64,000 nucleotides of DNA from Escherichia phage AidaStucki_Bas93 (PQ850593.1), one strand, 5' to 3'; counted from the first letter of the stretch, positions 6,856 to 63,126 are shown. Numbers and translations: made by a program. Notes: generated by a model not told the origin, from the sequence alone.

Positions 6856-6868
6856 TGTAATGTATATT
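6856..6868 (+). promoter_or_regulatory. candidate phage promoter motif GTAATGTATATTC
   Basis: TAATGTATA core about 35 nt upstream of the 6900 start codon; same core recurs upstream of other genes. Confidence 0.4.
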
Positions 6869-14356: not shown

Positions 14357-17300
14357 ATGGCGCTGTATCCAATAAAGTCACTAGGTGCTGTAGGCGTTAT
14401 CGCTGATCAGGCTCCGACAGACTTAGCTCCTAATGCTTTCACTAATGCTATAAATGCTCGATTTGTTGAGCAGAGAGTGTTTAAGACGGGGGGCAATGCC
14501 CCTCTTTCTTATGTAGATGAAGATAAGGATTTAACCCCTCTGTCTTTCGTGTCTATGCCTTTCGATTATTATAGCGCAGGTAATAGCTTTCTTGTTGTAG
14601 GTACGAATAAGAAGTTATATAAACTGACAGATGAAAGCTTGACTGACATTAGCCGTAAGGTTGCTACAGTCACTAAGAAGGCTTCTGCCTCAATTAAGAT
14701 CTATCCAGTTGTTTCTCAAATCGTTCCTAAAGAATCAACTATTTCAATGAACTTCAATCAGACTAAGAATCTAGAAGTTTCTCTTCTTCCTGCTGATGCT
14801 AACAATACCGACCTTGTTTGGGAGGTTAGTAATTCAACCTATGGAAGTATTGCAGTAGACCCTAATGATTCTAAACTTGCTACTCTAACATCTTTTGAGA
14901 GAGAGGGGAATCTTGTAGTAACCATCTCTACTGCTGATGATTCTGTAGTGGCTCAGATTGCTGTGAACATTATAGATGGTGATTCGGGAATCTTCTTGAG
15001 TCAGGACACTGTTACTATCCGTAAAGGAGGGACTACCACTCTTACGGCTGTTACTGGTAAAACCCCTGTTACTTGGTCTAGCAGTAATGCTTCTATTGTA
15101 TCCGTAACCCCTAACGCTAATTCTCTAACTTCTGTTATTACTGCTAATGGTGAGGGCAACGTAACAATCACTGCCGATAATGGAACGAAGACTGCTTCTT
15201 GTGAGGTTGTTTCTATACCTCAGATTGATAGCATCTCTTTAAGCCAGTCGGATGTTATTGTAAGCAGAGGTTCTCAGTACATCTTAACTGCTACCCTTTC
15301 TCCTGCTGATGCCCCTAATCAAAACATTACTTGGACCTCTTCTAATCCAAATATTGCAACAGTATCAGGGACTAGTACACAAGGGACGATCAATGCCTTA
15401 CTTGCTGGATTTACTGAGATTACGGCTACCACTGAAGAAGGTAACAGAGTTGCTGTCTGTACTGTACGAGTAGATTTAGCTGGAAGGGCGATGAGAACAA
15501 GTGCTATGGCATTTGCTGCACCTGCATCAGAACCAATTGAATCACAAGAGGAAGAAGTAGTAACTTCTCCTGAAAGTGAAGAGACGGTTTATTTTGCTGA
15601 TCCTGTGTCTGGTATCGATACGTCAGGGATGTATGAAGGTAATAACTTCTACGACTACTCTAACGTGAACGACATTGAAGGTTTTGCAAGAGCTTCTTTA
15701 CTAGAAACCCCTTTGTCATCCGTAACCTTGGATGTTGTCAGTGCTTCTCTTGATGTTGGTGAGGAAATAGTTATTACAGCTACAGCTTCTCCAGAAGGTG
15801 AGTATTCCTATCAGTGGTCTGTCGATAAGACTGGTTATGTTTCTACAACTTCAGTTACTGGTAAATCTATCAAACTGGTTGCTCTTCGTAAAGGAGAGAT
15901 TAACGTAACATGTACTGTCAGTCAGATGACCCAGAAAGATTACGATGCTTTTGATGACTACCCTTGGTATCACGCTGTTATCTCTAACTGTGCAGTTGCT
16001 ACAACTCACTATGAAACTCCTCAGGTAAAAGAGTTCGAATCAGAATACTTTGTAGACCTTCCGGGGTGGGGTGAGCAAACAGTTGTTGATAGTGATGGAA
16101 ACCCTTCAGTCAAAAAGTTTAACTGGAAATGTGAGAGAGTAAGATCTTTTAACAACCGTCTTTTTGCTCTGAATATGAGAGAGGCTAATGCTTCTGGTGT
16201 TACCACTAACTACCCTCTTCGTCTTCGTTGGTCTAATTTTGCCAACGAGAACAAAGCTCCTACTTTATGGGATGACTTTGCCTATGATCGAGTTGTGTCT
16301 TCGGACTTGGCTTCTAACATCGTAGGACAGACTCAGGCTTTAGAAAATGGATATGCTGGTTACATCGACTTAGCTGACTCTAACGGCAGCTTGATTGATA
16401 TCCTACCTCTTAAAGATTACTTGTTCGTTTATACAGAGTTTGAAACGTACATTGGTTCTCCAACTAATAACACGTACCAACCTCTGATGTTCAAGAAACT
16501 CTTTAACGATTCCGGTATCCTTGCTCCTGAGTGTGTAGTAGAAGTTGAAGGTAGTCATTTCGTAGTTACTCAGAACGATGTAATCTTACACAATGGTGCA
16601 ACTAAGAAGTCAATCGCTTCTAACCGTGTTAAGAATATGCTAATTAATGAGATATGTCTGGTTAACCCTTTAGCTACTCGAGTACATTTGCATCAGGATA
16701 AGAAAGAAGTTTGGATTCTGTACGTAGGTCCGGGAGAACCAAAAGAAAGCTTCGCTTGTACTAAAGCTGCTGTATGGAACTACGAGTTTGATACTTGGTC
16801 CTTCCGTACTATTCCTTATGCTCAGTGTATCGGTCTAGTTGACCCTCCTGTTTTAGAGAGAGGTCCAATCTGGTCTGACTTCCAAGAGATCACTTGGGAT
16901 GACCAATCTATCAAAGAACTCGTTTGGAGAAAGGATGCAACAAACTTTAGACAGAGGGTTACGATAGTAGGTTCGTTCTTGAGGGGGTTCTATCAAGTGG
17001 ATGTAGGTGCTCTTGATTATTTCTATGATAGGCTTAATGATAAGATTATAGAAAAACCACTGGAGATGAGGTTAGAGAGAACTGGCATTGATTTTGATAA
17101 CATCACTAATGAGTGGAATCAAAAGCATATCAATAGGTTCAGACCTCAGACGACAGGTTCTGGTACGTATACTTTTGAGGCGGGTGGTAGTCAATTCTCT
17201 AACGAGTATGGTCATCCACATACATCCAAGACGTATACGATTGGTGTTGATAGGCATGTCTCGGTGAGACTGAACCATCCATACCTTTTCTATAATGTTA

Positions 17301-23940: not shown

Positions 23941-23955
23941 CATAATGTATATAGG
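23941..23955 (+). promoter_or_regulatory. candidate phage promoter motif CATAATGTATATAGG
   Basis: TAATGTATA core about 40 nt upstream of the ATG at 23990. Confidence 0.4.
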
Positions 23956-23989
23956 AGGTAGGACATTTTTATTTATAAAAGGAGACGTT

Positions 23990-26900
23990 ATGGCTAACAT
24001 TAAACCGTGGGAAGAAGCTTCCAAAGCTCCTGCGTATCTGAATGCCTCTCCGGAGCAACAGGCTCAAATGAGAGAACAATATAAGGCAGCAGGTGGCTTT
24101 ATTCCTGAGGAACAACCAGTAGCACAACCACAACAAGAAGAACGTGGTGTTATAGGTGAGTTTGCTCAAGGTGTGTCAAATGCTCTTCAATCTGGTGGTG
24201 CAAACATTGCAGCTAGTGCTGCTAAAGGTATTGGTGGTTTAGTTGAGATTGGTGAAGACCTAATTGGAGCACAAACTAGTTATGGTAAGCGTATCCAAGA
24301 GAACTCTCAGAACCTTCTGAAAGAACGTATGGATAAGATTGAGGATGGGATTGGTAAAACTGCTGGGCAATATGCTGGGGTTGTTGGTGATATTGGTTTG
24401 ACAGTTACTAATCCGTTAGCTGCCGCTGCTATCATCGCAGGTCGTGAGACAGGTCGTGCATATGCGGATCAAACCCCTGAAGAGGGAGAAGACAAGTCTG
24501 TTCTGGATGCAGCCTTAGTTGGTGGTGCTAACTATGCAGCTCAGAGAATTCTTCCGGGTGCTGTTGGTACAGCTGAATCTACACTTGGTCGTATCGGTCA
24601 GAACGTTGTTACTAACGCAGTGGCTGGTGCTAAAGGCGGTGCTCTTGTAGGTGCTGCTGAAGCTCAGAACAAATATGGTGATGACACAACCTTTGCTAAT
24701 GTCTTAGAAGGCGCTATTGAAGAAGGTGCTATTGGTGCTGCATTCGGTGGTGCAGTGGGTGGTGTTCACGGTTTGATCAGCCGTCCAGATTCTGCTGTCT
24801 TCAAGAATACTCCAGAATATGCAAAGACTGACATTGCTGCTGACGATGAGCTGATTCGTAGTGCTAAGACTGTTGATGAACTGAAAGAAGCCTACTCTAA
24901 AGCTGAAACTGCTAACGCCGCTTCCGCTCTTAATCTTCTGGATGAGAATGGATTCCGTATTACTGATGCTGTTGCTGTAGATTCTCCTGCTGCTCAGCGT
25001 ATTCTTAATACAGACCAAGCTCGTGCTGAGAAAGCTGCTTCTGTTCAGAAAGAACATTCTAATATTCCGGGCCTTAATCCTTTGGCTTCTCCTGCTAAGA
25101 CTCGTGGTAAAGCATTCGCTGATAATGAGCACAACCAGAAGCAAGCTGTTGCTATGAAAGATGCAATGGCTGACTACACCAAGGATAACACGAAAGCTCT
25201 TACAGATGTTCTAGATAACCTAGACCGTGAATTAACTGCTTACCGAGCTGCTGATGATTTTACTGGCAATCCACTTGATGTCAAGAATCGCACACAAGCT
25301 GACCGTGACTTCGTTGATGCTTATAAGACTTTCTATAATGAAGCAAATCGATTCAAAGCTCGTGATGGTGAAGACTTTAACAACTTTGTAGAGAAAGCTA
25401 CTGAGCTACGGAAGATGGCTGATAACGTTTCTCCAGAGATGAAGAAAGCTATTAGTGGGTTGAAGAAACTGAAAGGTATGCCTGAAGGTTTTAACCCTAT
25501 TCAAGATGCTTATACTCTGAACAATGCAGCTAAGTTCATGAGCAACCAAGACCGTGGTTGGACTTCCCTGACCGATGATGGATTCCGTGAGGCTTCTTCT
25601 CCTAGTCTGGTTATGAACACACTCGGTGCTGCTAAGTATGCTCTGAATCGCTTCTCTTCTCAGCGTGCTCGCTCTCAACGTGTTAAGCAACAAGAAGCTA
25701 ACAGCGAAGCTATCCGCTCTCTGGCTCGTGGTGATTTGGAAGTTGCTCGTGCTAAATCTACTGCTGATGAAGCTCGTGCTAAAATGGAAGAAGAACCAGT
25801 TGTTGATGACATTAAATTTAAGACGCAAAATGACGTGGAAACCGAACCGGTTCGGGAGCCTTCTTCTAGTACTGTGACGGAAGAAAATCTTCCTTCTTCC
25901 ACTCCTCAAGAAGCCCCTCTTACAGCTCGCGATTTAGTTGCTCAAAGACGTGCAGTTAAGCAGGCAGAACAGCGTCGTGCTCAAGAAGAGGCCGCACAGG
26001 CTCCAGAACCCACTGTAGAGGAACCAACAGTCAAAGCCGAGCCATTACCTGCCCGTGCTCCTAAAGCTCCTAAGGAGTCTATACAGGACGTTAAACCGGC
26101 AAGTGGTGTAGAACGTTTAGCTGCCATGTCTAGTGCTGCTCGTCAGGCTACTATAGATCGTGCAGAACGTTTTGCTCGTTCTCTGTACTCTCAGACTGCT
26201 AAGGCTAAGGCCACTGCTGAAAACTTCTTGGCTTACAAGGGAAGTTATAGGGAGTTGATGCGTCGGATTCGTCAGGAAGATAATGCTATCAACACTGAGC
26301 GTCATGAAGAGATGGCTCGTAATCAGCTAGCTTCTCAGCAAGGTATTGCTACTGCTAAGAACAACACTGTACGAACTAACTTTGCTGAATGGGTTAAGGA
26401 ACGTGGTCTGCCAGAAGACATTGCTACTAAGGCATTACGTGCTGAAGAGAAGGGTTTAGGTGGGAACGTGACTAACTTAGATAGTCTGAAACGTCGTGCT
26501 GAAAGGTTGTATCAGAAGCAGCGTGAGGATGAGTTTGATAGACTGTATCAACAGGCTCTGGAAGAGAATAAAGCTTTTGATAAGAAGAATGCTCCTAAAC
26601 TGGCTGACCAGAAGAAAGAGCTTCAATCTGAGATTGACACTTTGATTGATTCAGAACCTTTACGTCCTGCTCAGAAAGATGCTGTGCGTAAACTGATGAA
26701 TGACTTTGTAGATGAGAAGTTTAAATCTTCAGAGAAGGCTGGTAGGGAAGAAGCTTTGGAAGTAGGTCAGATGAAGGATATTTGGGATGGGTTTATTAAC
26801 ACCTATAACAGAGAAGTGAATGCCTTCAACAAAGCTAACAAGAACTCTCAGTATGAGGCTGCTGCTAAACACTTGCAGGCTCGTGAGGAGCGTCTTATCT

Positions 26901-28297
26901 CTTTACGTAACAGAGCAGAAGCTCGTGCTCAAGCGAAAGCTACAGCAGAAGCTGAACGTCAGTTACTCGAAGCTATTGCTGGTCAGAAGACTGAGATAGA
27001 GAAGATGTTTGATGAGTTACCTAAACCTGTCCGCGAGGCTCAGGAAAGCCGTACTCTGAAACAGCTTGCAGCTCACCATGATAAGAACTCCCCTGTTCCT
27101 CCAGAACGTTTCCGTAGTATTATCGAACGTATCCACAACGCCGAGTCAGATTACCTTGATCGTCAGCGTCGTTTAACTGATGCAGAAGAAGATGCTCGTC
27201 AGGCTAAGTGGAACAAAATGTATGAGCAAGCGGAAGAGATGGACCGTAAGTTTGAGATAGACAAAAGGGTTAAGCGCAGTGAAGAGCTTAAAGCGGCTCA
27301 GAAGCGTGAGAATGACCTTATGGCGGTACAACGTCAACGTGACGACATCCATCGTCGCCTGATGCATACTTTGGAGGATAGGGGCATATCTAAAGAGGAT
27401 GCTGAAGCATTTGCTGGTTCCTACATGGATAACCGTTATGCACTTCTTGATAAGCCTATGACTCCTACTGAACATCAGAATGCTCGTTCTCGTATTGAGG
27501 CTGATGTTGAGAAGTTTGCTAAGAAGTACGAATCAATGACTCCTATTGAGAAAGAGATTGTTAAGGTTACTGGAGATACTGAAGGTAAGCTTGATAACTT
27601 GGATGCGGATACTAGGAAGGCTATTGAGGAGGCTCAGAAGGTGGACTCTGATATTAAGAAACTGCAAGAGGAAGAGATGGAGATGGAGAAGATTCGTTCT
27701 GCTCTGCCTGATGATGAAAGATCTCAAGCAAATTCTGATATCTTGGAAAGCATTAAACAGCAGGAAGAAGCCTTTGCTGATAAAGCAGAGAAAGCTTTCT
27801 TGAATGGGAAGAGCTTGGATGAGTTGGCTAGTGTGGCTGAAGTTTTAGACAGGGTTCATGGTGCAGACAAGGCTGGTAACAACCGTCGCTTTGTACGTGC
27901 ATTGCAGACTGCTGCTGAAAACAAGAAGAAGTATGGTGATAATCCGGTAGCTTGGTTTAGTGCTGATGATTATTCTGCTATTGCTAAACTTGGTGCTTCT
28001 TCCGCAGGTGGTAACAAATCTAGAGCACTGGAGAAAATCTTTGGTTCTACAGCTGAACAAGCTAAGAGTAAGTTGCTTGGCAGGGATGATGTAGCGAAGA
28101 TGAGACGTGTAATTGAAGAGAACCCTGATATTAAGATTCCTTCTTACAAGACAACGAATCGTACTGAGTACTTGCAGTTCTTGGAGAAGTTTAATGACGA
28201 AGGGAAGCCGAAGATTAAACGTGGCTCATTGTCAGAGAAGCTTGAACGCAGTAAGCGTCAATCGAGACTCCGTGTAAGAGTTCGATCTAAGGAGTGA
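23990..28297 (+). CDS. large putative internal virion/ejection protein
   Basis: about 1435 aa, charged and helical; start moved to MANIKPW (AAAGGAG RBS); last gene of the plus-strand arm. Confidence 0.5.
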   Translation: MANIKPWEEASKAPAYLNASPEQQAQMREQYKAAGGFIPEEQPVAQPQQEERGVIGEFAQGVSNALQSGGANIAASAAKGIGGLVEIGEDLIGAQTSYGKRIQENSQNLLKERMDKIEDGIGKTAGQYAGVVGDIGLTVTNPLAAAAIIAGRETGRAYADQTPEEGEDKSVLDAALVGGANYAAQRILPGAVGTAESTLGRIGQNVVTNAVAGAKGGALVGAAEAQNKYGDDTTFANVLEGAIEEGAIGAAFGGAVGGVHGLISRPDSAVFKNTPEYAKTDIAADDELIRSAKTVDELKEAYSKAETANAASALNLLDENGFRITDAVAVDSPAAQRILNTDQARAEKAASVQKEHSNIPGLNPLASPAKTRGKAFADNEHNQKQAVAMKDAMADYTKDNTKALTDVLDNLDRELTAYRAADDFTGNPLDVKNRTQADRDFVDAYKTFYNEANRFKARDGEDFNNFVEKATELRKMADNVSPEMKKAISGLKKLKGMPEGFNPIQDAYTLNNAAKFMSNQDRGWTSLTDDGFREASSPSLVMNTLGAAKYALNRFSSQRARSQRVKQQEANSEAIRSLARGDLEVARAKSTADEARAKMEEEPVVDDIKFKTQNDVETEPVREPSSSTVTEENLPSSTPQEAPLTARDLVAQRRAVKQAEQRRAQEEAAQAPEPTVEEPTVKAEPLPARAPKAPKESIQDVKPASGVERLAAMSSAARQATIDRAERFARSLYSQTAKAKATAENFLAYKGSYRELMRRIRQEDNAINTERHEEMARNQLASQQGIATAKNNTVRTNFAEWVKERGLPEDIATKALRAEEKGLGGNVTNLDSLKRRAERLYQKQREDEFDRLYQQALEENKAFDKKNAPKLADQKKELQSEIDTLIDSEPLRPAQKDAVRKLMNDFVDEKFKSSEKAGREEALEVGQMKDIWDGFINTYNREVNAFNKANKNSQYEAAAKHLQAREERLISLRNRAEARAQAKATAEAERQLLEAIAGQKTEIEKMFDELPKPVREAQESRTLKQLAAHHDKNSPVPPERFRSIIERIHNAESDYLDRQRRLTDAEEDARQAKWNKMYEQAEEMDRKFEIDKRVKRSEELKAAQKRENDLMAVQRQRDDIHRRLMHTLEDRGISKEDAEAFAGSYMDNRYALLDKPMTPTEHQNARSRIEADVEKFAKKYESMTPIEKEIVKVTGDTEGKLDNLDADTRKAIEEAQKVDSDIKKLQEEEMEMEKIRSALPDDERSQANSDILESIKQQEEAFADKAEKAFLNGKSLDELASVAEVLDRVHGADKAGNNRRFVRALQTAAENKKKYGDNPVAWFSADDYSAIAKLGASSAGGNKSRALEKIFGSTAEQAKSKLLGRDDVAKMRRVIEENPDIKIPSYKTTNRTEYLQFLEKFNDEGKPKIKRGSLSEKLERSKRQSRLRVRVRSKE

Positions 28298-35160: not shown

Positions 35161-35654
35161 TTAGTGTGTATGCATCCAATTTAACCCAATCTGACAATCA
35201 GAAGCCAGAGGACATTCCATGTTCAAGTACTCACCAGCCTTCTTAACACAAAGCTCGGTGTACTCTTTGAGTTTCTGTACATCATTACGGTTCACTGAGA
35301 ACTGGCCCTCATCGTGCATATCAATTACCTTAGCACAACGAACTCCATCTTTCTCAATCCACTTGTTAAGGAACATCATAGCATATTTCATAACAACAGC
35401 ACCAGCACATTGCAGGAGTGTGTTAAGGGCTTTATGAACCATAACCTTACCAGTGGCATCCCGTCTCATTGTAATCTTACGACCATCAACGCCAATCAAA
35501 TACCCTTGAGCAGCTTTCTCTGTCATACGATCAATGAGGATTGCAATACATGGGTTCTCTGCCAAGAAGCGTGCTCGCATCACTGAACCTTCGTCAGCTC
35601 CACCACCTACGATTGAACCAAGTTTAGCATCACCAGCACCATAGTTAAACGCAT
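35161..35654 (-). CDS. DNA polymerase (family A, T7 gp5-like), exon 2
   Basis: frame reads ...YGAGDAKLGSIVGG ... ALNTLLQCAG ... VIDMHDEGQF, matching motif B end through motif C; the frame is open upstream of the track's GTG start. Confidence 0.75.
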
Positions 35655-36360
35655 CTCATATATTCGACAAGAGCCGCAACACTCTCGCCCGTTCTCTTAT
35701 GAACTGCTACATGTCGCCATGTAGGATAGACTATATCATCACCCTCTATCGAGGGGTTGGGCGCTTCCACCGGCATTAGCTTCCGGCGTACTCCTTTCGG
35801 ATAGTCGTTGCACCTTCAAGTATTCTATAGCTGTTTCTAATCGGCTAACATCATCTTTCAATAGCCCTAAAGCTCTGTTGCAGTTGTGACACAACAGACC
35901 GCGTATTACTCCGGATTCATGGCAATGATCAACCACAAGTTTAATTCTGTGATGTGTTGCCATTACAAACCCTTCGCCCTTACAGATAGCACACTTCCCA
36001 TCCTGATCAGCGTACATCTTTTCGTAATCGCTGGCTGTGATTCCATAAATTCGTTTGAAGTAGGAATTTCTCCAGCCCCTATCTTTGCATTCATCAGAGC
36101 AATAATGTTCAGATGGTGCATTTGGTTGAAAATCTTTTGAGCAATTACGACAAGGTTTTGGATTGAACCGACCTTGAGGGTATTTACTTGCCTCAGCAGT
36201 CTGTTCTTCTTTAGTTTTAGTTACAGTTGTATATTCCATAAGCACCTCCATGTTGAGTTGCTATAGAATACTTGCTTGGCTCAGGATTGTCTACTAGAGA
36301 GTTTCCCTGAGTTCACCCAATTTAATCGACGAGATTACTCTCGAAGTATCCATTTACGTC
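35655..36360 (-). mobile_element. putative group I intron in the DNA polymerase gene
   Basis: 706 nt between exon 1 ending on a U (first base of the in-frame TGA) and exon 2 beginning after a G; joining gives RDNAKTFI-Y-AFNYGAGD, a continuous motif B. Confidence 0.55.
35739..36251 (-). CDS. intron-encoded HNH homing endonuclease
   Basis: 170 aa with HNH/Endo-VII-like CAICKG ... DHCHESG ... CHNCN motif, located inside the polymerase interruption. Confidence 0.7.
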   Translation of the reverse strand: MEVLMEYTTVTKTKEEQTAEASKYPQGRFNPKPCRNCSKDFQPNAPSEHYCSDECKDRGWRNSYFKRIYGITASDYEKMYADQDGKCAICKGEGFVMATHHRIKLVVDHCHESGVIRGLLCHNCNRALGLLKDDVSRLETAIEYLKVQRLSERSTPEANAGGSAQPLDRG

Positions 36361-37711
36361 AGATAAACGTTTTAGCGTTGTCACGAGTAGGAAGACCAGC
36401 AAGTTTCTGGTTGTGGGAGTGGATATCACCTTCAAGAAGGATATCACGATACATAATAGCAGAAGCTAAACCACGTTCTGCCAGAGCTTTCTTAGCTGGA
36501 TTATTCTCTTCGATTGCTTCAGCAAGCATATCCCTACACTCTTTAATGAGGTAGTGAGCGAGCATACGAAGTTCAAGTCCAGAACCATCATACCCTAAGA
36601 ATACTTCTTTACCAGCGGGTATGTAATATTTGTAAGCACCTACAGGCTTATCTTTCTTCCCCGGCTTACCTTTCTCGTAAATTACGTTAGTACCTTTTCG
36701 TATATAACAACCATCAGGAACAACGTTAGTAATAACGAAAGGACGAGAGTGATCACTGTCTGAATTATAGTCAGACTCAAACAAACTGCGACACTCATGA
36801 CCAAACAAACCACGAGAGGGAATATTAACCACGATACGATGTTTGAATCGAAAAGTTGGCGTAGCGCAGCTGTTAGCTTCTGCCGAAAGTTTACCATCTT
36901 CGCGTTCCTTTGCTATGAGTCCACTGATAAGACCTAGCCTGTGAGCCGCTACAACGCGCCTCTTAAGCAAACTTCCAACACTCCCTAGCTCGCCCCCTAA
37001 CCCTTCTTCAAGAGTCTCCTCGAGGTTTGTAGGAGCTGTAGGCCACTTGTTTGAGGTAGCTAGTGCTATCTTAATCTCATCAAACGTGATAGGTCTACGT
37101 CGGTTAGGGTTTAAACCTAAACCAAACACATAAGCCTTCATATAGTTCTTAGTCTTAAACCTAAAATGCTTCTCTAAGAACCTCCTAATATCTGCGTCAA
37201 CCATCTCGGCTGTCTGCTTCTGTTTAGCATTACCTCGCATCCAAGCTGAATACCACGCTTGGTATGTTCCATACTTTCGTATATCTTTCTTGATTTCAAA
37301 AGTATTCCAAGGTTTCTTTGATACGTTAAACTCTGGAGGAAGAAAACCCTCATCCATAAGGGCTTCTTTAACTCGTGCATCTTTCGATGGGTCAAAGTCC
37401 ACGTATTCAACACAGGTGAATGCTCCACCAATGTCTTCTCTCTTAAGGCCAACTCTATCACAATAGGCTTGAGGCCACTTCTGTAAAGCTCCAGACTTCT
37501 TAAATGGCTTCATATAAGTAGAGCCATCTAATCTCATCTTAGGTAAGAGAGGGATCAGTTCTTTGTCGATATTAACAATAATCTCTTTAAGGAGGTGAAC
37601 ATACCACCGAGCATTTCTTCGGTTGAAACTCACTCCGTGCTTCGCTTGCTTAGAGATTATATCAGCGACAGTCATCTCTGTCAAAAATGGGAGAGCGTCC
37701 GGGTTGCTCAC
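36361..37711 (-). CDS. DNA polymerase (family A, T7 gp5-like), exon 1
   Basis: YDGSGLELRMLAHY (motif A) and ...LPTRDNAKTFI (start of motif B); colinear with the T7 gp5 polymerase domain but lacks the N-terminal exonuclease domain. Confidence 0.8.
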
Positions 37712-38476: not shown

Positions 38477-38794
38477 TTACGATGAGCTTAAAGCTCCTTT
38501 GCGTGCTCCAGCTGCCTTCCCAGTTCGATCTCCACTTTTGCCGCCAGCTGAACGATTTCCGCTGACTGTTTCAACACGTAAGTTGCTTGACGCATTAGAG
38601 CCTCCTGACTTGATAGCTCGTTTGTGTCCAACGTCTTTACCTCTGACAGCAGCTTTTCCATCGCGCTTTTCAACGATGCGACGTGCACGGTGGCGCTGAG
38701 CATCTCCGCTCTTGCTACCAATTCCCGTTTCACCCCTTGCGATGGCGGTACGTCTTTCTTGTGCATAATCTCTCTTTCCTACATGGTCTGCCAT
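38477..38794 (-). CDS. basic Gly/Lys/Arg-rich protein
   Basis: AAGGAG RBS 7 nt upstream of ATG; a 92-aa alternative-frame ORF (38488..38766) overlaps and cannot be excluded. Confidence 0.4.
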   Translation of the reverse strand: MADHVGKRDYAQERRTAIARGETGIGSKSGDAQRHRARRIVEKRDGKAAVRGKDVGHKRAIKSGGSNASSNLRVETVSGNRSAGGKSGDRTGKAAGARKGALSSS

Positions 38795-38829: not shown

Positions 38830-38841
38830 GTATACATTATG
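38830..38841 (-). promoter_or_regulatory. candidate phage promoter motif (minus sense CATAATGTATAC)
   Basis: TAATGTATA core about 40 nt upstream of the 38794 start. Confidence 0.35.
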
Positions 38842-56820: not shown

Positions 56821-57183
56821 CTATTGGTTTTTAATCAACTCAATAGACTTACGGATATAAAGAATATCTCGGAAGTTTCTGTAGTTGTTCATAAATTGAT
56901 GCTTCTGGAACTCAGCTTCTTCCAGAGCTTTCTTTGCGTCTGCATAGCCCTTACGAGCAAGATATACAACACGCTCTGGTAACATGTTTGCACGATGGAT
57001 TAGATACTTGTGAGCTTTCATGTTGCTTTGCTCACGAGCAATCTTACCTTTAGCAACTTTGATACCATTTGCAATCCAAGCAAGTTCTTGCTCAAGCTCA
57101 TCGTTGGACATTCCACCGAGGTTTGATGCAACCTTGTTCAGAGTTTCAATATTAACGTTGCCCTTGATGGGACGTGTATTCAT
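56821..57183 (-). CDS. hypothetical protein
   Basis: 120-aa ORF. Confidence 0.4.
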   Translation of the reverse strand: MNTRPIKGNVNIETLNKVASNLGGMSNDELEQELAWIANGIKVAKGKIAREQSNMKAHKYLIHRANMLPERVVYLARKGYADAKKALEEAEFQKHQFMNNYRNFRDILYIRKSIELIKNQ

Positions 57184-57185
57184 AC

Positions 57186-57338
57186 TTACTCCTGTTGTTT
57201 ACACTCGTCAATAACCCACTGATAAGTGGATTGCCCAGAAAAGAAACACTGAATAAATCCAGACGTTCTCTGCGTTACCAGTGCTAGTGCACAAATCACT
57301 ACCGCTGCTGCTAGCAGTTTTAAATCTAATTTAGACAT
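57186..57338 (-). CDS. small membrane protein
   Basis: start moved to MSKLDLK (AGAGAGGAAAT RBS); one hydrophobic helix. Confidence 0.4.
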   Translation of the reverse strand: MSKLDLKLLAAAVVICALALVTQRTSGFIQCFFSGQSTYQWVIDECKQQE

Positions 57339-57568
57339 ATTTCCTCTCTTTGAATTTAAAAAAGGACTCTCCGAAAAGAGCCAAGCTTTAAATCCAAAAA
57401 AGATATTACCCAATATCTGTGGATAACCTGCTCTTAAAATATCTATCCGACGGATGTTTGAGGAACACTCCTCGCCCTAGCATCGGCCCCATACGGGAAA
57501 TAAATTAAGATTAGGTTAGTTGAGTCAGAATAACTCACATAGCCTTCTCCGGAAGAAGGCTATAGATG

Positions 57569-57802
57569 TTACTCGCCTTTCTTAGCACGATCTTTGGCAG
57601 TTTTGCCAGTGCGGATGCGGTGTGAAACGTTAACCAGAGTGCCGCCATCAACTACGGTAACGCTCTTGTTTTTAGCCAGATCAAACACAGCCTTCTCTGT
57701 GCCACCCAAGCGAATTTGCTTAGGCTCACTGAAGGTTTGGGTTGATTTGGATTGGAACTGGAACGGTTGACGGATTGCATCAATTGCACTTACTTTAGAC
57801 AT
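57569..57802 (-). CDS. hypothetical protein
   Basis: 77-aa ORF. Confidence 0.4.
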   Translation of the reverse strand: MSKVSAIDAIRQPFQFQSKSTQTFSEPKQIRLGGTEKAVFDLAKNKSVTVVDGGTLVNVSHRIRTGKTAKDRAKKGE

Positions 57803-58102
57803 AGGGGAAATTCCTTAAAAAGTCATGGCTGCGTAGAGGGAATTCCCTACGCAAATTGGGCCGCCTAAAAAGAGGCGTCATAGTACTAAAAGGAGGAGAG
57901 AAGAGGGCTTATTTAGCTACCTTTTTCTGACCATTTACGAACCAGATAATTGTGCCATCAGGCTGCCGTTGACCGAAGCCTTTAATAGTTAGCATGTCTT
58001 CCGAAAACTCTTTAAAAGTAATCATTTACTTATCCTTACATTAGAGTTAATATGATCTCTGCTTTGGCAAACTTCTCACCAACTTCGAGAGTATCAGCAA
58101 TC

Positions 58103-58348
58103 CTACTCCTGAACCACAGACATACGAATCATTTCCACCGGAGTGTCACCCTTCATAACACCCAGCACACCAGACATAAGGTTAACTGTGGTAATCCAGT
58201 CTTTTTCTACAGAGATTTTGCTGGACACATTGGCAACACGCATATAATACTGAGGTGATGCTGAACCTCGCTGGACTACGAAAGGATTTCCGGGGATGAT
58301 AGTATCCAGCGGATGTGTGTTATCTTTAATCTTAGGGATAATTTTCAT
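58103..58348 (-). CDS. hypothetical protein
   Basis: 81-aa ORF. Confidence 0.35.
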   Translation of the reverse strand: MKIIPKIKDNTHPLDTIIPGNPFVVQRGSASPQYYMRVANVSSKISVEKDWITTVNLMSGVLGVMKGDTPVEMIRMSVVQE

Positions 58349-58356
58349 CTTGATTC

Positions 58357-58668
58357 CTATTTAAGTTTGAGGCTGATATTAAGGTGCATACACGCCCTGT
58401 TCTGTACAGCGGCATAACTTCTGCCGAGCATGTCTGCCATTCTCTGAATAGGCATGAACCCAGCATTACGAATAACAAACTGATCTTCTTCTTCCGTCCA
58501 CTTGACACGAAGAGTAGCTCTGGAAATTTTGAACTTGGTACAGGCTGTGTTAACAGCATTCTCTGTAACATTCATAATCTGAGCAACCTCTTGAACCGAG
58601 TACTCTTTGATCAGTCTCCGAAGATTTTCAATCTGCATCGGAGTCCATATAGTTCTTCGTGCTTTCAT
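58357..58668 (-). CDS. putative helix-turn-helix DNA-binding regulator
   Basis: two HTH-like segments (YSVQEVAQIMNVTENAV and IQRMADMLGRSYAAVQNR). Confidence 0.4.
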   Translation of the reverse strand: MKARRTIWTPMQIENLRRLIKEYSVQEVAQIMNVTENAVNTACTKFKISRATLRVKWTEEEDQFVIRNAGFMPIQRMADMLGRSYAAVQNRACMHLNISLKLK

Positions 58669-59162
58669 ATACCCTCCAATTAAACATTTATATAAGACTT
58701 GCTTAGATAAAGATTCAATAAAATAGGGGGAGGGGACGAATCCTCCCTTATCCTATTAATTAGTATTGCATGTAAGATCTAACAATCGGTTTCCTTTGTA
58801 GGAATAAGCGTTATGCTCATCCAGCACTAAACTCCCGCCCCCTTAGTGGGCTGGGTTATTAAAGGGTAACGCCCTTATGGGCTAGTTACGTGAATGTTAG
58901 TTTGATAGGAGATCTGAAGTCCTATCTCAAAGGACTCTCGTAAGAATCCTTCACGATAAGCTCTTAATATACTAATCCGTGTAAGAGAAACACTCTCTTA
59001 GTTAACTCTGCTTTAGCTCTGTAATAAGCCGTAGAACCTAACAGGCGGCTCTTAACAAAGAACTTGATGTCATTGCTTACGTCTTGTATTAAACGCTCCT
59101 GTACAGCTTCTGAGGAGCTATTAATTGAATCAATTAACACCTTTGTAGATGTGTAATTCACA

Positions 59163-59444
59163 TCACCACTCCTTACCGGTTGTAGTTGTAGAGCCACCAC
59201 ACCACTGTGCATTAGATAAGGTTTTAGTCTCCTCATCCATTGCTGCACCATTCATGCATGAGATACCATTGTAACGCATATCAATTTCGCCAGAAGGAAC
59301 CTTCTCACCTTTATGCCAGCGAGATACACAAATACCTTCCACTGCTACTGCACACCATCCATCAGGACGGCTCTGTACACAGCCTGTAAGGGCCACACAG
59401 ACAAGGAAGATACAGATTAAGGATATTACACCACCCCAACTCAT
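59163..59444 (-). CDS. putative lipoprotein
   Basis: signal peptide with lipobox ALTGC; GGAGGT RBS 7 nt upstream of ATG; start moved from the track's 59501, which runs through the upstream inverted repeat. Confidence 0.5.
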   Translation of the reverse strand: MSWGGVISLICIFLVCVALTGCVQSRPDGWCAVAVEGICVSRWHKGEKVPSGEIDMRYNGISCMNGAAMDEETKTLSNAQWCGGSTTTTGKEW

Positions 59445-59456
59445 AACACACCTCCA

Positions 59457-59558
59457 AGAGCTTCTAGCGAGGATGACAGGGTTCGAACCTGCATACTCCA
59501 ATTACTTCTTTAACGACCGCTTAGAAGGCGGGGAAGATACATCCTCGCTAGAAGCTCT
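59457..59558 (-). ncRNA. structured element: 19-bp perfect inverted repeat enclosing a 64-nt loop with tRNA-like T-arm (not a canonical tRNA)
   Basis: AGAGCTTCTAGCGAGGATG (59457-59475) pairs with 59540-59558; loop contains GCAGG-TTCGAAC-CCTGT and CCGC-CTTCTAA-GCGG hairpins; no D-arm could be folded. Confidence 0.35.
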
Positions 59559-60064
59559 TATTTATTATTGAAACCCTTGCTCCAGTAATACTTACCATTG
59601 CAAGACCTACTACAAAAATGATTTTGGTTTTCTTTGTGGACCTTGTTACTCCTTCTCTCAAAAGATGTGCCACAATTACTGCAAACCAAAGTTATGACCA
59701 CACCCTTAGGTCTGTTCTCTAAGGTCTTCTTTAAGTGATCATTTGTGCTTAGAATCTGAAGGTTAGATATCTCATCATTGGTTGGATTTTGATCAACATG
59801 ATCTACCTCTTCCTCTGTAGTGAGATATCTTCCTATGTGGCAGGACATTAAGTACCTAGCATAAGAAACAGTAGACCTGTCTTTATCAGAGTTGTAAAGA
59901 TCTACAACCCTTCTCCCCTCTCGATTTTGACGAAGATATCCCCACCTCCAGTCATTGCAGTAGGGATAATCTAATTGTATTTTCAAATTACCTCCTGCTC
60001 TATCCATTGAGCTAAGAGCGCTTAATTTATTTAGATCATATCTCGCTTGGTGATAGGACCACAC
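59558..60064 (-). CDS. HNH homing endonuclease with C-terminal zinc finger
   Basis: HVDQNPTNDEISNLQILSTNDH HNH motif plus CSNCG ... CSRSC; stop abuts the inverted-repeat element. Confidence 0.7.
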   Translation of the reverse strand: MWSYHQARYDLNKLSALSSMDRAGGNLKIQLDYPYCNDWRWGYLRQNREGRRVVDLYNSDKDRSTVSYARYLMSCHIGRYLTTEEEVDHVDQNPTNDEISNLQILSTNDHLKKTLENRPKGVVITLVCSNCGTSFERRSNKVHKENQNHFCSRSCNGKYYWSKGFNNK

Positions 60065-60084
60065 ACTTTACATTCATACCAACC

Positions 60085-60336
60085 TTAAGCACATGCAGGG
60101 AGTGTGATGATTTCAGGTTTACCTTCGAACTCTTCAAACAAACCCAAGAATGTAGGGCTATACGTACCAGTACAAACAAACTCATCAAAGAGTTCATTGT
60201 ATGAGGGCTTAATCTTCCAAGCCCACACATAGCCCATCTTATCAATTGCAATGTAACGAGTGTTTAGAGGAACAGTCATCATCACACCATCAACTTCGAC
60301 CACTTTAGTGATTGGTGCAGCTTGGAAGTTTTTCAT
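60085..60336 (-). CDS. hypothetical protein
   Basis: 83-aa ORF. Confidence 0.4.
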   Translation of the reverse strand: MKNFQAAPITKVVEVDGVMMTVPLNTRYIAIDKMGYVWAWKIKPSYNELFDEFVCTGTYSPTFLGLFEEFEGKPEIITLPACA

Positions 60337-60362
60337 ACTTTACCCTTAATTAAAACAACAAA

Positions 60363-60388
60363 GGCCACCCGATTGGGCAGCCTTTTTT
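60363..60388. terminator. terminator-like hairpin
   Basis: GGCCACCC-GATT-GGGCAGCC hairpin with T-run on plus and T-rich run on minus; same hairpin motif as at 38452. Confidence 0.45.
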
Positions 60389-60835
60389 ATTTGTTAACTG
60401 TTATAGATCCAATTACCTTGCTTGTTACGGATAGTGGACATTGCATGAACCCAGAAGCCTTCCAGTTTCAGAGCACCATTAGTTACTGCATCCATACGTT
60501 CAGGGCGGTTCATACGTTTGGTTGATACTTTCATACCTATCTCTCTCTTTGTTAGTGGAGGCATTATTGCCAGTTGATATAGCAGATAACCCTATTAAAA
60601 GGACTACCGACTATCTAAACTGGTGAAGACTCCCTACCCCTAGAGAGTCTCCTGAATCCCAAACCAATATGTACCCCTACATATCGGAAAGTCTACCGAA
60701 AATTAACAGGTTTTAGTCTAACACCGGATGTTCGAGCAAGCTCTCCCTAGCGGTGTGGCATATGCCTGATTTAATAAGTTAATGAGGAACACCCTCACAT
60801 AGCCCTCTGATAAGCACAAGGGCTATAAGTCGGTG

Positions 60836-61132
60836 TTACTTGTCGGCTTCAATCTCTTGATGCTTAGCTATAGCTACTCTCAAGTCCTCATTAGCACGAG
60901 TAAGGCGTAATACTTCATGGTTGAGATTCTGAAGACGCTTGTTTCTATCTTCAACTTGCGTAATAAGATCATTAAGAGTTTCTTTAACTTTCTCACTATA
61001 CATCTCATCCACTCGGACTAGAGATTTGTACATTCTCTCCCAGCTTGCTGCTTTGTTCCTAAGGATAATAAATCCTATAACGCTGATAGTTAAACAGCTT
61101 ACAAAAAGGAATTTATATATCTCTAAAGTCAT
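60836..61132 (-). CDS. membrane-anchored coiled-coil protein
   Basis: N-terminal transmembrane helix then charged helical region. Confidence 0.4.
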   Translation of the reverse strand: MTLEIYKFLFVSCLTISVIGFIILRNKAASWERMYKSLVRVDEMYSEKVKETLNDLITQVEDRNKRLQNLNHEVLRLTRANEDLRVAIAKHQEIEADK

Positions 61133-61331
61133 ATTATTTACCCTTTATCAGAGATTAAAAGTAATATTATTTAAGTAAGTTATATTTAGTAAACTTATTT
61201 TCTAAGAAATTTTCAAAGGGTCTATATACAGAGCATTACCCATAGTCCCAGAACACTACCATCTTTTTCAATAAATTTACTAAGTGGTTGGTTTATAAAG
61301 GAATTTAGTTTGTCAAATCTGGCACTAGAGA

Positions 61332-61721
61332 TTATTCCCTAGAGCTATTATCGAACACTAAATCACCACAATACATAGGATTGGCATACCATTTTGGCAC
61401 CCCTTCGCTCTTACTCTGAAAGTAAGTCCCACTATACAGCGGAACATAATTCTTCTTAAGGGCACGTTTAGCAAGTCGCTCGCTTTCTCCAATGGCTTGC
61501 TTAGTCATCGGATTTTTATCACGAATCAGCTTTACATAACGTTTATAAGGTTTCTCCTGTTTTAATAGTACCGGAATCCACTCAAACTGGTTCTTTTGTC
61601 TTATCACCTGTTCAGCGGTCAGTTTTCGTTGGGCCATTCTATTTATCACGGTATCCGCAACTAAAGCCTTACATGCGGTTGGCTGATTCCCTGCCTCATA
61701 ATAAATAGTCAATGTCAACAT
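61332..61721 (-). CDS. cell-wall hydrolase (SleB/Hydrolase_2-like), endolysin candidate
   Basis: LTIYYEAGNQPTACKALVADTVINRM resembles the Hydrolase_2 N-terminal motif. Confidence 0.5.
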   Translation of the reverse strand: MLTLTIYYEAGNQPTACKALVADTVINRMAQRKLTAEQVIRQKNQFEWIPVLLKQEKPYKRYVKLIRDKNPMTKQAIGESERLAKRALKKNYVPLYSGTYFQSKSEGVPKWYANPMYCGDLVFDNSSRE

Positions 61722-61770
61722 TAGCTGGGCCGTTGTTATCAGAACTTGCTACCTCCTGTTTTACGGGCAT

Positions 61771-61796
61771 AAAAAAGCCCCAGCCGTAGCCGGGGC
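61771..61796 (-). terminator. rho-independent terminator
   Basis: minus-strand GCCCC...GGGGC hairpin followed by TTTTTT. Confidence 0.5.
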
Positions 61797-61856
61797 AAAC
61801 CTGAAAGCAACGCATGACCATTGCTATAAATACACTCGCAAATGCACTTACAGCAA

Positions 61857-61881
61857 CGCAAAAAGCCGCTCAAAGGCGGCT
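61857..61881 (-). terminator. terminator-like hairpin
   Basis: minus-strand AGCCGCC-TTTGA-GCGGCT hairpin followed by TTTTT. Confidence 0.4.
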
Positions 61882-61961
61882 ATGTGGAAGCTTCAAATGG
61901 GGAGAGGGCACGACGCGGCAGAAAGAGCGTCATAGTACTAAAAGAGGGGGCTGCATTCCTA

Positions 61962-62405
61962 CTACTTAACCCTTGCTTCTTTGATGGGGTCAATGTATTT
62001 TTCAACTCCCCACTTGCGTTTACTGTCAGCGTAGAAAACATCAGGTGCACACTGGCTTGTCTTAGGAAATGCTTGCGGGTCTTTCGTGCTACCTTTAAAC
62101 TTCTGTTTACCACGGGTGCGACCATTACAGAAGATCTCTAACTTCTTCTCTTCTTCTGTTTTAGCTCCACCGCTCCGTAATAAAGAGCGTTTATGATCGG
62201 CTAACAATAACGCATCAGCACGATGGACACGATGACCTAAACGTTTTGCCACACTGGAAGGAATAGGAGATTCAGCTTCAGCCTTTGCAGCACGACGTTT
62301 TAAACTACGCTTGCTAATGTGATTAGTTGCCTTTGGTTTCTCTTTCTCCAATTCAGAAATAGAAAAACAACGCCCGCCCTTCATGCTGATTTTAGATTTA
62401 GCCAT
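61962..62405 (-). CDS. hypothetical basic protein
   Basis: 147 aa, K/R-rich. Confidence 0.4.
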   Translation of the reverse strand: MAKSKISMKGGRCFSISELEKEKPKATNHISKRSLKRRAAKAEAESPIPSSVAKRLGHRVHRADALLLADHKRSLLRSGGAKTEEEKKLEIFCNGRTRGKQKFKGSTKDPQAFPKTSQCAPDVFYADSKRKWGVEKYIDPIKEARVK

Positions 62406-62474
62406 TATCTTATTCCTTTCAGTGATAAGTTATATCGGGCAAGCCCATCAAGGCGATAGGCTTGAACAAATAAC

Positions 62475-62684
62475 TCAACCAAGTAAACCAAATGATTTCC
62501 AACTACGCAGTAAGATCGTACCATCATCCATAGTTACGCATAATTTTAGTAGTCGCTTACTGGTACTGCTCACCGTTGTGATTCGTCCGGTTGTGCATTT
62601 ACCTTTATTGCTATAAAGATATATAACACGATGGCCTAACAAGCGGGAAGGAGCTTTCTTAAATTCTGAGATGTTAGTGATCAT
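62475..62684 (-). CDS. hypothetical protein
   Basis: 69-aa ORF. Confidence 0.3.
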   Translation of the reverse strand: MITNISEFKKAPSRLLGHRVIYLYSNKGKCTTGRITTVSSTSKRLLKLCVTMDDGTILLRSWKSFGLLG

Positions 62685-62902
62685 TATCCATATACCTTAA
62701 CATGATTGATTCGACGTGAATGATGATAAGAAGACTCAACAGCCATTGCCTTTAATTCTTCTTTTCGTTGGTTAGTGTGTACAATATCCCAATGATTATG
62801 ATCGTGTTGGCGCTGTAATATCTTACTACATTTGCGATGGTTTCCCGTGCTGCGACGTTTCTCACAAATAGGACACTTGCCAAAATTATTACTGAATATC
62901 AT
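62684..62902 (-). CDS. zinc-finger small protein
   Basis: CPICEKRR ... H-rich segment. Confidence 0.35.
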   Translation of the reverse strand: MIFSNNFGKCPICEKRRSTGNHRKCSKILQRQHDHNHWDIVHTNQRKEELKAMAVESSYHHSRRINHVKVYG

Positions 62903-63126
62903 TTTCTCAATCCTAACTTTCTTAAGACACGGCCTAACGTTGTTTCTTGGGTGATAGTATACCTGACCGCTTCACGTTCCAACGTTTCAATCTTCATTGG
63001 CGACGGATACCATTCACCGGTAAGCATACACCTATACTCAACGCCATACTTTTTAGATAGGCGGTAATGTTGACCGTTGACAAGATTCCTATAAATCGTG
63101 GTATGCGTCGTTAACATAATCGTCAC
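62899..63126 (-). CDS. hypothetical protein
   Basis: 75-aa ORF. Confidence 0.35.
   Translation of the reverse strand: MTIMLTTHTTIYRNLVNGQHYRLSKKYGVEYRCMLTGEWYPSPMKIETLEREAVRYTITQETTLGRVLRKLGLRK

Follow-up and report, generated by a model that had tools for sequence, protein, structure and literature searches.

The window analysed here comprises 64,000 nucleotides (nt) of Escherichia phage AidaStucki_Bas93 (PQ850593.1). Since it runs from the large terminase gene to the homologue of phi32_124, the early-promoter region and the terminal repeats lie outside it. Our subject is an 18-mer, GCGTCATAGTACTAAAAG, which an initial annotation had reported as an identical element at two distant sites in non-coding DNA between minus-strand genes. 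An exact search of the window bore this out: there are exactly two exact copies, at 57875-57892 and 61927-61944 on the plus strand, and the layout of open reading frames (ORFs) places both in non-coding DNA flanked by minus-strand ORFs of the early cluster. On the minus strand, i.e., the strand of these genes, both copies read CTTTTAGTACTATGACGC. When up to three mismatches were allowed, one further match appeared in the window, at 25863-25880; the expectation from shuffled windows is 0.05 matches, and none of 100 shuffles reached three. Altogether, the window holds three exact repeats of at least 18 nt, the 18-mer being one of them. We propose that the three sites listed below share a core that is probably a programmed nick site of the kind mapped in several Pseudomonas phages.

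Site 1, minus strand: 18-mer at 57875..57892 (exact match), core TACTATGACG at 57885..57876, between ORF 57569..57802 and the 39-codon homologue of phi32_94.
Site 2, minus strand: 18-mer at 61927..61944 (exact match), core TACTATGACG at 61937..61928, between ORF 61962..62405 (homologue of phi32_120) and ORF 61332..61721.
Site 3, plus strand: TACTGTGACG at 25870..25879, within the three-mismatch match to the 18-mer and inside the 1450-amino-acid (aa) late ORF 23945..28297 (homologue of phi32_26).

Over the window region 57000-63000, identity is 99.7% to Escherichia phage JacquesWildberger_Bas92 and 91-97% to about 100 phiEco32-like phages (Kuravirus and allies, Gordonclarkvirinae), among which the regions of both intergenic copies are conserved. 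In phiEco32 itself, site 1 is unchanged and lies between phi32_93 and phi32_94, while site 2, between phi32_119 and phi32_120, differs by a single A-to-G change, its core reading TACTGTGACG. As for further copies, for which the initial annotation had proposed a search, the complete phiEco32 genome (77,554 bp) yielded none of the 18-mer beyond these two. In the window, a degenerate third copy lies within a late gene. A scan of IMG/VR found the 18-mer in three kuravirus contigs only; scans with two 14-mers (26 and 31 loci) returned matches resembling scattered single-copy chance hits.

A footprint comparison across three genera, Kuravirus, Nieuwekanaalvirus (EP335, KBNP1711) and Suseptimavirus (SU7), takes us beyond the initial annotation, as distant relatives keep only a 10-nt core of the 18-mer. 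Besides the window, sites 1 and 2 were compared in phiEco32, NJ01, a metagenomic kuravirus, MLP3, ECBP2 and KBNP1711, with EP335, SU7 and TH34 added for site 3; a search of IMG/VR for related loci supplied five kuravirus loci for the same purpose. At site 1 (six kuraviruses of the three genera), the base at -1 changes from G to C, and both the TTTTAG tract and the downstream sequence are altered, while the core is intact. At site 2 (seven kuraviruses), TACTRTGACG is whole even though its flanks can hardly be aligned from one genus to another. Site 3 is kept in seven genomes of all three genera amid a variable low-complexity stretch. Within the core, the sole variation in the compared kuraviruses is A or G at the R position, and the rest of the 18-mer is common to the phiEco32-close group only. 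TACTRTGACG is thus the only invariant part at three syntenic sites in three Gordonclarkvirinae genera. Because the core alone is invariant while its flanks change, the selected unit would be a nick consensus, and the comparison indicates that the functional unit is the core 5'-TACTRTGACG-3' on the gene strand and not the 18-mer.

The minus-strand core GTACTATGAC at both intergenic copies is letter for letter the nick site of LUZ24-like phages, and the LUZ24-like variant nick site GTACTGTGAC is present within site 3. All three window copies match 5'-TACTRTGMC-3' (GTACTRTGAC in its LUZ24-like form), and the A-to-G change at phiEco32 site 2 is a permitted R variant, the resulting TACTGTGAC being the main site of Pseudomonas putida phage tf. 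In the LUZ24-like P. aeruginosa phages P1-14Or01 and Ab22, read pile-ups were described at GTACTATGAC and its variant GTACTGTGAC (Essoh et al. 2013, 2015; PMC3634792; PMC4482731). In tf, 14 single-chain interruptions were mapped at 5'-TACT/RTGMC-3' (Glukhov et al. 2012, PMC3517423) by run-off sequencing, T4-ligase-sensitive alkaline-gel fragments and primer extension, with the break after T4 of the consensus. For phage Rembedalsseter, the consensus is WACTRTGAC, and native Oxford Nanopore Technologies (ONT) coverage of one strand drops to zero (Dougherty et al. 2025, PMC11780129). In this nick class of LUZ24-like, tf and Vicosavirus phages, cleavage at TACT/RTGMC leaves a ligatable 3'-OH/5'-P. 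In tf, one substitution at position 1, 3 or 4 is enough to abolish nicking (PMC3517423), and these positions are unchanged in every kuravirus copy that we compared. The G that nearly always follows the 9-mer in tf and LUZ24 follows it in all three kuravirus copies as well.

Both tf and LUZ24 encode homologues of about 20 window proteins, including the large terminase, portal, scaffold, capsid, tail proteins and primase-helicase (45-47% identity), as well as the split DNA polymerase, a separate 3'-5' exonuclease, a 5'-3' exonuclease and an amidoligase/ATP-grasp cluster. So many common proteins make it plausible that a DNA-level feature is shared by descent. With core genes held in common and three sites syntenic across three genera, the kuraviruses fit a lineage in which this nick family occurs. 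The nick positions predicted from the core are as follows.

Minus strand, between 57882 and 57881 (TACT/ATGACG): predicted nick at site 1, its core identical to mapped sites of LUZ24-like phages and tf; predicted phiEco32 equivalent between 63067 and 63066.
Minus strand, between 61934 and 61933: predicted nick at site 2, from the core match to the nick consensus; predicted phiEco32 equivalent between 70589 and 70588.
Plus strand, between 25873 and 25874: predicted nick at site 3, likewise from the core match; predicted phiEco32 equivalent between 27944 and 27945.

The kuraviruses resemble tf in that the 9-nt consensus is matched exactly, both R variants are present, the next base is G as at most tf sites, core structural and replication genes are shared, and the sites of both cluster in the early-gene part. 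The differences concern number and arrangement: tf has 14 sites, mostly intragenic and all on one physical strand, whereas the kuraviruses have three, two of them intergenic with a pyrimidine tract and a hairpin and one on the opposite strand. Moreover, the nicks were physically shown in tf, while in kuraviruses they are predicted from sequence. The LUZ24-like phages, which have the same core as the window (GTACTATGAC or GTACTGTGAC), and Rembedalsseter (WACTRTGAC) carry 6-13 sites per ~45 kb on a single strand; they were studied as Pseudomonas phages, with the enzyme unnamed.

The 10-mer TACTRTGACG occurs three times in the window against 0.17 expected (18-fold, P = 7.5e-4), and likewise in phiEco32 and MLP3. 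All three window copies lie on the coding (non-template) strand of their own gene arm. Counts in further relatives, none of them among the phages reported to be nicked, are given below.

Salmonella phage 7-11: TACTRTGMC, 13 copies (12 minus, 1 plus), 2.35 expected, P = 1e-6.
Pantoea phage TacPo2, first 50 kb: TACTRTGACG, 5 copies, all plus, 0.18 expected, P = 1e-6.
Pseudomonas phage Lyrsu01: TACTRTGACG, 8 copies, all minus, 0.18 expected, P = 2.6e-11.
Cronobacter phage GAP52: variant TACGGTGACG, 8 copies (7 minus, 1 plus), 0.06 expected, P = 7e-15.
Cronobacter phage GAP52: TACTATGACG, 1 copy, minus, 0.23 expected, P = 0.21.
Vibrio phage 1.262.O, with related replication and amidoligase genes: TACTRTGMC, 0 copies, 1.96 expected, P = 1.

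In 7-11, the site flanks fit aCTACTGTGACGg as a consensus, and the sites are concentrated toward the early right end, with seven in the right-most 14 kb. In TacPo2, five exact aacTACTRTGACG copies and one with a single mismatch all have plus orientation and fall in the arm of plus-strand genes. Lyrsu01 has 13 additional one-mismatch copies, 12 of the 13 outside the M variant; its 8 exact copies and 12 of these 13 are on a single strand. The GAP52 variant, also given as acTACGGTGACG, has the 'ac' flank upstream as well and does not occur in the other genomes compared, which suggests that recognition has shifted at position 4. For 7-11 and GAP52 alike, the single plus-strand copy is found among the plus-strand late genes. 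Two patterns of orientation can be told apart: the sites are on the coding strand of whichever gene arm holds them in kuraviruses, 7-11, GAP52 and TacPo2, whereas one physical strand carries all of them in tf, LUZ24 and Lyrsu01. The first half of the Privateer genome contained no exact site. In the literature searched, we found no report of nicks for phiEco32-like coliphages, 7-11, GAP52 or TacPo2, so that this class of nick site appears to be new for them.

For the cutting of such sites, one window gene is a candidate nickase gene.

38477..38794, minus strand: candidate nickase gene, encoding a basic 105-aa protein with an HNH-like H-N-N core (homologue of phi32_58, 7-11 gp068 and phrog_4590).
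38831..38839, minus strand: exact TAATGTATA, the promoter consensus of the gp36 holoenzyme, 37 nt upstream of the candidate nickase gene (equivalent to phiEco32 P58).

No motif-bearing genome that we examined lacked the 105-aa gene, whereas the one related control free of the motif did. Four window ORFs showed this distribution in all five fully compared motif genomes: the 105-aa gene, the two polymerase parts and the 3'-5' exonuclease. The protein is also the most conserved of those shared with tf and LUZ24 (58% identity, above the helicase), and its gene is intact, with 58-64% identity to homologues from Pseudomonas and Salmonella phages. A hidden Markov model (HMM) of the family matched the window, phiEco32, MLP3, 7-11, GAP52, tf and LUZ24 at E <= 1e-39 and gave no match in Vibrio phage 1.262.O, which has no sites. 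The homologous ORFs of tf (16126-16413) and LUZ24 (15622-15930) are unannotated in the RefSeq records because another frame is annotated there (tf_29 and gp26, described as transmembrane proteins); we recovered them with stop-to-stop ORFs. TacPo2 has its HNH-like gene at 16068-16376. In a phage collection, the protein was found in 253 records, among them 105 from Pseudomonas, 94 from Escherichia, 11 from Aeromonas, 8 from Proteus, 7 from Salmonella, 6 from Cronobacter and 5 from Vibrio phages. The annotation of phrog_4590 is 'unknown function'.

Residues R8, Y10, E13, R34, A37, R38, R39, H57, G64, N71, N80 and K93 are invariant in the family, and the core reads VDHK..K.GGSN..SNLRV.S..N, with H57, N71 and N80 lying in VDHK..GGSN..NL...N. 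Pfam HNH is weakly matched by 19 of 26 members (best 1.5e-3) and HNH_3 by 8 of 26 (best 2e-5), while the window protein itself has no Pfam match; the family profile gave an insignificant alignment with Cas9-HNH among PDB sequences (E = 3.9). In the AlphaFold model, strands 53-57 and 72-76 and helix 77-84 form a beta-beta-alpha core with a predicted local distance difference test (pLDDT) score of ~75. The top PDB matches from Foldseek are mostly HNH nucleases, the first being a 97-aa Mn-dependent HNH nicking endonuclease, all at E ~3 and none individually significant. HNH enzymes are commonly single-strand cutters. The candidate resembles the small HNH nicking endonucleases (Gme HNH, PDB 4h9d; the Cas9 HNH domain) in its H...N...N beta-beta-alpha core and in its length of about 100 aa. 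It differs from them in having no zinc-binding cysteines and in its long basic N-terminal helix and Gly/Lys-rich tail, and the similarity scores are weak.

Gene 58 is one of six phiEco32 genes behind gp36-dependent promoters (PMC8948821), and the gp36 promoter ahead of its homologue in the window implies middle expression. Such timing would agree with nicks being repaired early and then returning, a course of events that PMC3517423 cites for phikF77. In the literature searched, no paper names the nickase of the TACT/RTGMC family. We tentatively suggest, at somewhat less than even odds, that the 105-aa family (phi32_58, 7-11 gp068, phrog_4590) is the nickase behind TACT/RTGMC nicks. Such a nuclease-plus-site system would extend over a large clade of podophages infecting Pseudomonas, Escherichia, Salmonella, Cronobacter, Pantoea and probably Proteus and Aeromonas, its specificity co-evolving with the sites, as the TACGGTGACG of GAP52 may illustrate.

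Taken together, the evidence points to an element recognised by a nuclease that acts on DNA with sequence specificity. The initial annotation had named a protein-binding site among its options, and by virtue of the identity of the core with nick sites this holds in the broad sense, although the specific promoter and operator forms do not (see below). More precisely, we give a probability of roughly 0.6 to the kuravirus core being a version of the LUZ24-like/tf/Vicosavirus nick site, cut by a phage nuclease (the 105-aa HNH-like protein being the candidate) and leaving nicks in packaged DNA; the DNA of the window phage probably carries programmed single-strand cuts. We infer both the nicking of kuravirus DNA and the role of the 105-aa protein from sequence comparison. 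In the proposed scenario, the phage nuclease, possibly the product of 38477-38794 expressed from its gp36-type middle promoter, would recognise the three copies in mid infection. It would cut only the motif-bearing strand, which is the coding strand in each case: minus at 57882/57881 and 61934/61933, plus at 25873/25874. The nicks would persist in packaged DNA and presumably be sealed after the next host is entered. Because tf, 7-11, GAP52 and the kuraviruses have their sites clustered near the early-gene end, it is tempting to link the nicks to packaging or ejection of that genome end, a guess that we hold only weakly.

Several observations weigh against this scenario. The 9-mer TACTRTGMC is not significantly enriched in the window (3 observed, 1.94 expected) or in kuraviruses generally (3 against 1.9-2.3). 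The window, phiEco32 and MLP3 each have two minus copies and one plus copy, so the sites are not confined to a single strand. The conservation of site 3 could stem from the protein sequence that it encodes (T-V-T-E). The HNH assignment has weak scores behind it (Pfam at or above the usual thresholds, Foldseek E ~3, mean pLDDT 62.5), and the co-occurrence of the 105-aa gene with the motif was set against one negative control genome. The two intergenic copies share a pyrimidine tract and a hairpin beyond the core, from which it follows that something else is also selected there. Finally, the literature searched, which did not extend to two primary phiEco32 papers, contained no report of physical nicks in any kuravirus. 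Among GenBank kuravirus records, several begin within 100-600 nt of site 2, and none at the predicted nick.

The count of the 9-mer, being that expected by chance, also feeds the rival explanation that survives best, namely that the copies are relics of an ancestral nicking system, or chance matches, that are no longer cut, their conservation reflecting low divergence and coding constraint. Most kuravirus genomes are indeed >90% identical in these regions, site 3 is coding, and GAP52 demonstrates that specificity can drift from TACTRTGAC. We nevertheless regard this explanation as unlikely, given that TACTRTGACG has stayed intact between the diverged flanks of site 2, that the 10-mer is in such excess, and that the gene of the putative enzyme is intact and the best conserved among the shared proteins.

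The surroundings of the intergenic copies bear on a second rival, an element acting in RNA. A pyrimidine tract precedes each copy, and a short hairpin follows directly 3'. The initial annotation had stated that hairpins come next on the minus strand, and we found the following.

57860..57879, minus strand: site-1 hairpin, CGCCT-CTTTTT-AGGCG, its 5' arm formed by the 3' end of the core (DNA fold -5.3 kcal/mol, z -2.35).
61912..61931, minus strand: site-2 hairpin, GACGC-loop-GCGTC, its 5' arm formed by the 3' end of the core (DNA fold -4.3 kcal/mol, z -2.93).
61881-61864 and 61796-61777, minus strand: two hairpins resembling intrinsic terminators, on the downstream side of site 2 at distances of 46 and 131 nt; some related records label them terminators.

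Equivalent hairpins exist in other kuraviruses, with stems that differ between sites and phages; at MLP3 site 2, the stem has 7 bp, and a 66-nt stretch including the next hairpin folds at z -5.1. Neither tract nor hairpin was seen at the tf, LUZ24 and 7-11 sites, and judging from this comparison the pair is a kuravirus-specific addition. One could suppose that motif and hairpin form an attenuator, a weak terminator, an RNase processing site or an mRNA-stabilising hairpin, with the likeness to nick sites being secondary. Both intergenic copies run straight into a hairpin built in part from the motif's 3' end, a T-rich run follows the hairpin at MLP3 site 2 and KBNP1711 site 1, and site 2 is just upstream of the terminator-like pair. 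On the other hand, what is invariant is the sequence 5' of the hairpin and not the variable stem, and the hairpins are weak as DNA (-4 to -5 kcal/mol). The motif-proximal hairpins in the window have no U tract and were not called as intrinsic terminators, and scans of the whole window with Rfam and ARAGORN gave no family at the motif sites. Since the core also lies within coding sequence, at site 3 of the window and mostly so in 7-11 and tf, it fits poorly with an intergenic RNA processing signal, and that suggestion of the initial annotation is not supported. We find it improbable that an RNA-level role stands in place of nicking; it may exist alongside it. The motif-adjacent hairpins may be separate RNA-level signals or a DNA feature aiding the cleavage.

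Two side observations concern the same neighbourhoods. Between site 1 and ORF 57569..57802, an imperfect palindromic hairpin with an EcoRI site, GCGTAGGGAATTCCCTCTACGC, is found at 57815-57845 (minus), just upstream of the ribosome-binding region of that ORF; it is kept in phiEco32 and KBNP1711 and replaced in MLP3 and ECBP2. Downstream of site 2, Bas92 annotates a 41-codon 'tail protein' at 61739-61873 (minus) that overlaps both terminator-like hairpins and resembles a remnant of phi32_119 (265 aa in phiEco32), largely deleted in the window phage.

A transcription signal at the DNA level, be it a promoter for the host or gp36 holoenzyme or an operator for the helix-turn-helix (HTH) protein 58357..58668, is very improbable and already largely refuted, and with it go the shared promoter and the operator of the initial annotation. 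In its favour, two copies are intergenic and gene-oriented, contain the -10-like TACTAT and, in the window phage, an 8-bp palindrome, TAGTACTA. However, a promoter and terminator scan of 57000-63000 predicted no sigma-70 promoter (-35/-10 pair with 16-18 bp spacing) at either copy. Nor does the motif resemble the gp36 consensus tAATGTAtA, which lies 6-8 bp upstream of the start site and precedes genes 6, 13, 26, 40, 58 and 68 (Pavlova et al. 2012, as cited in PMC8948821); exact TAATGTATA is located elsewhere in the window, at 6858, 23943, 33320, 33392 and 38831. The gp36 promoters are comparable as short, highly conserved, low-copy, single-element intergenic motifs of the same phage group, but they differ in sequence and position, the 18-mer motif being found in the early region and inside gene 26. 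The mapped or predicted early promoters are elsewhere too, upstream of gene 128 and in the 124/125 spacer. Across genera, the upstream tract is not conserved and the palindrome is lost, reading CTACTATG or ACTACTGTG. Furthermore, the core is shared with LUZ24-like phages, whose records have no annotated sigma factor, and is also intragenic.

Least credible of all are small unannotated ORFs, in which the ATG within TACTATGAC would start peptides of 29 and 17 codons (opening with MTPLF and MTLFL): although the motif's RTG is the annotated start of three tf genes (sci1, sci4 and sci11) and two 7-11 sites, 83748 and 57091, likewise fall on annotated starts (83744 and 57087), there is no Shine-Dalgarno sequence in the pyrimidine-rich upstream tract (CTCCTCC), neither the downstream sequence nor the ORF length is conserved among kuraviruses, and phiEco32 site 2 has GTG.

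Two further candidates were tried and rejected. The 'promoter' motifs predicted in 7-11 by Guzina and Djordjevic are unrelated to ours, and a T7-type primase recognition site (GTGTC, against GTGAC here) was considered and dropped. Independently of these, the TAATGTATA at 23943, at the P26 position, shares bases with the first ATG of the long site-3 ORF.

The study of programmed nicks in phage genomes goes back about 50 years, to T5. Like T5 and the phiKMV-like phages (CGACNNNNNCCTA/CTCCGG), the kuraviruses would be lytic phages with few site- and strand-specific nicks in virion DNA, and their low number of sites is comparable to the 3-5 found there; both the consensus and the phages are otherwise unrelated. 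For T5, PMC3517423 cites the genetic mapping of two genes, sciA and sciB. If nicking of kuravirus DNA as proposed here is true, the question of nick function moves into E. coli, a tractable host whose phages are available in standard collections (BASEL Bas88-94). With three sites and one small candidate gene, the kuraviruses would be the simplest model for it, and GAP52 provides a natural specificity variant. The nicks would also distort the read-start statistics used for calling genome termini, break native long reads on one strand and possibly affect phage engineering at these intergenic positions.

Some features elsewhere in the window are worth recording. The family-A DNA polymerase mentioned above is split into 36359..37711 and 35161..35583 (minus) by an Endonuclease VII-type gene, 35739..36251 (Pfam 1.5e-23), which shares 56% identity with gp35, the polymerase-intron endonuclease of LUZ24; the phiEco32 polymerase, unlike that of the window, is uninterrupted. 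A tRNA-like core, to which the Rfam tRNA model gives 29.7 bits at 59468-59546 (just over the gathering score of 29), sits inside a 20-bp inverted repeat (AAGAGCTTCTAGCGAGGATG / CATCCTCGCTAGAAGCTCTT) at 59456-59561 (minus). ARAGORN found no tRNA anywhere in the window; in the annotation of relatives, this position holds a tRNA-Arg, beside an HNH endonuclease ORF (59558..60064). Lastly, the late-gene region contains an exact 32-nt direct repeat, GGTGGTACAGGTGCTAGTGATGCTGCCGGTGC, at 9417-9448 and 9507-9538 (plus), its two copies 90 nt apart.

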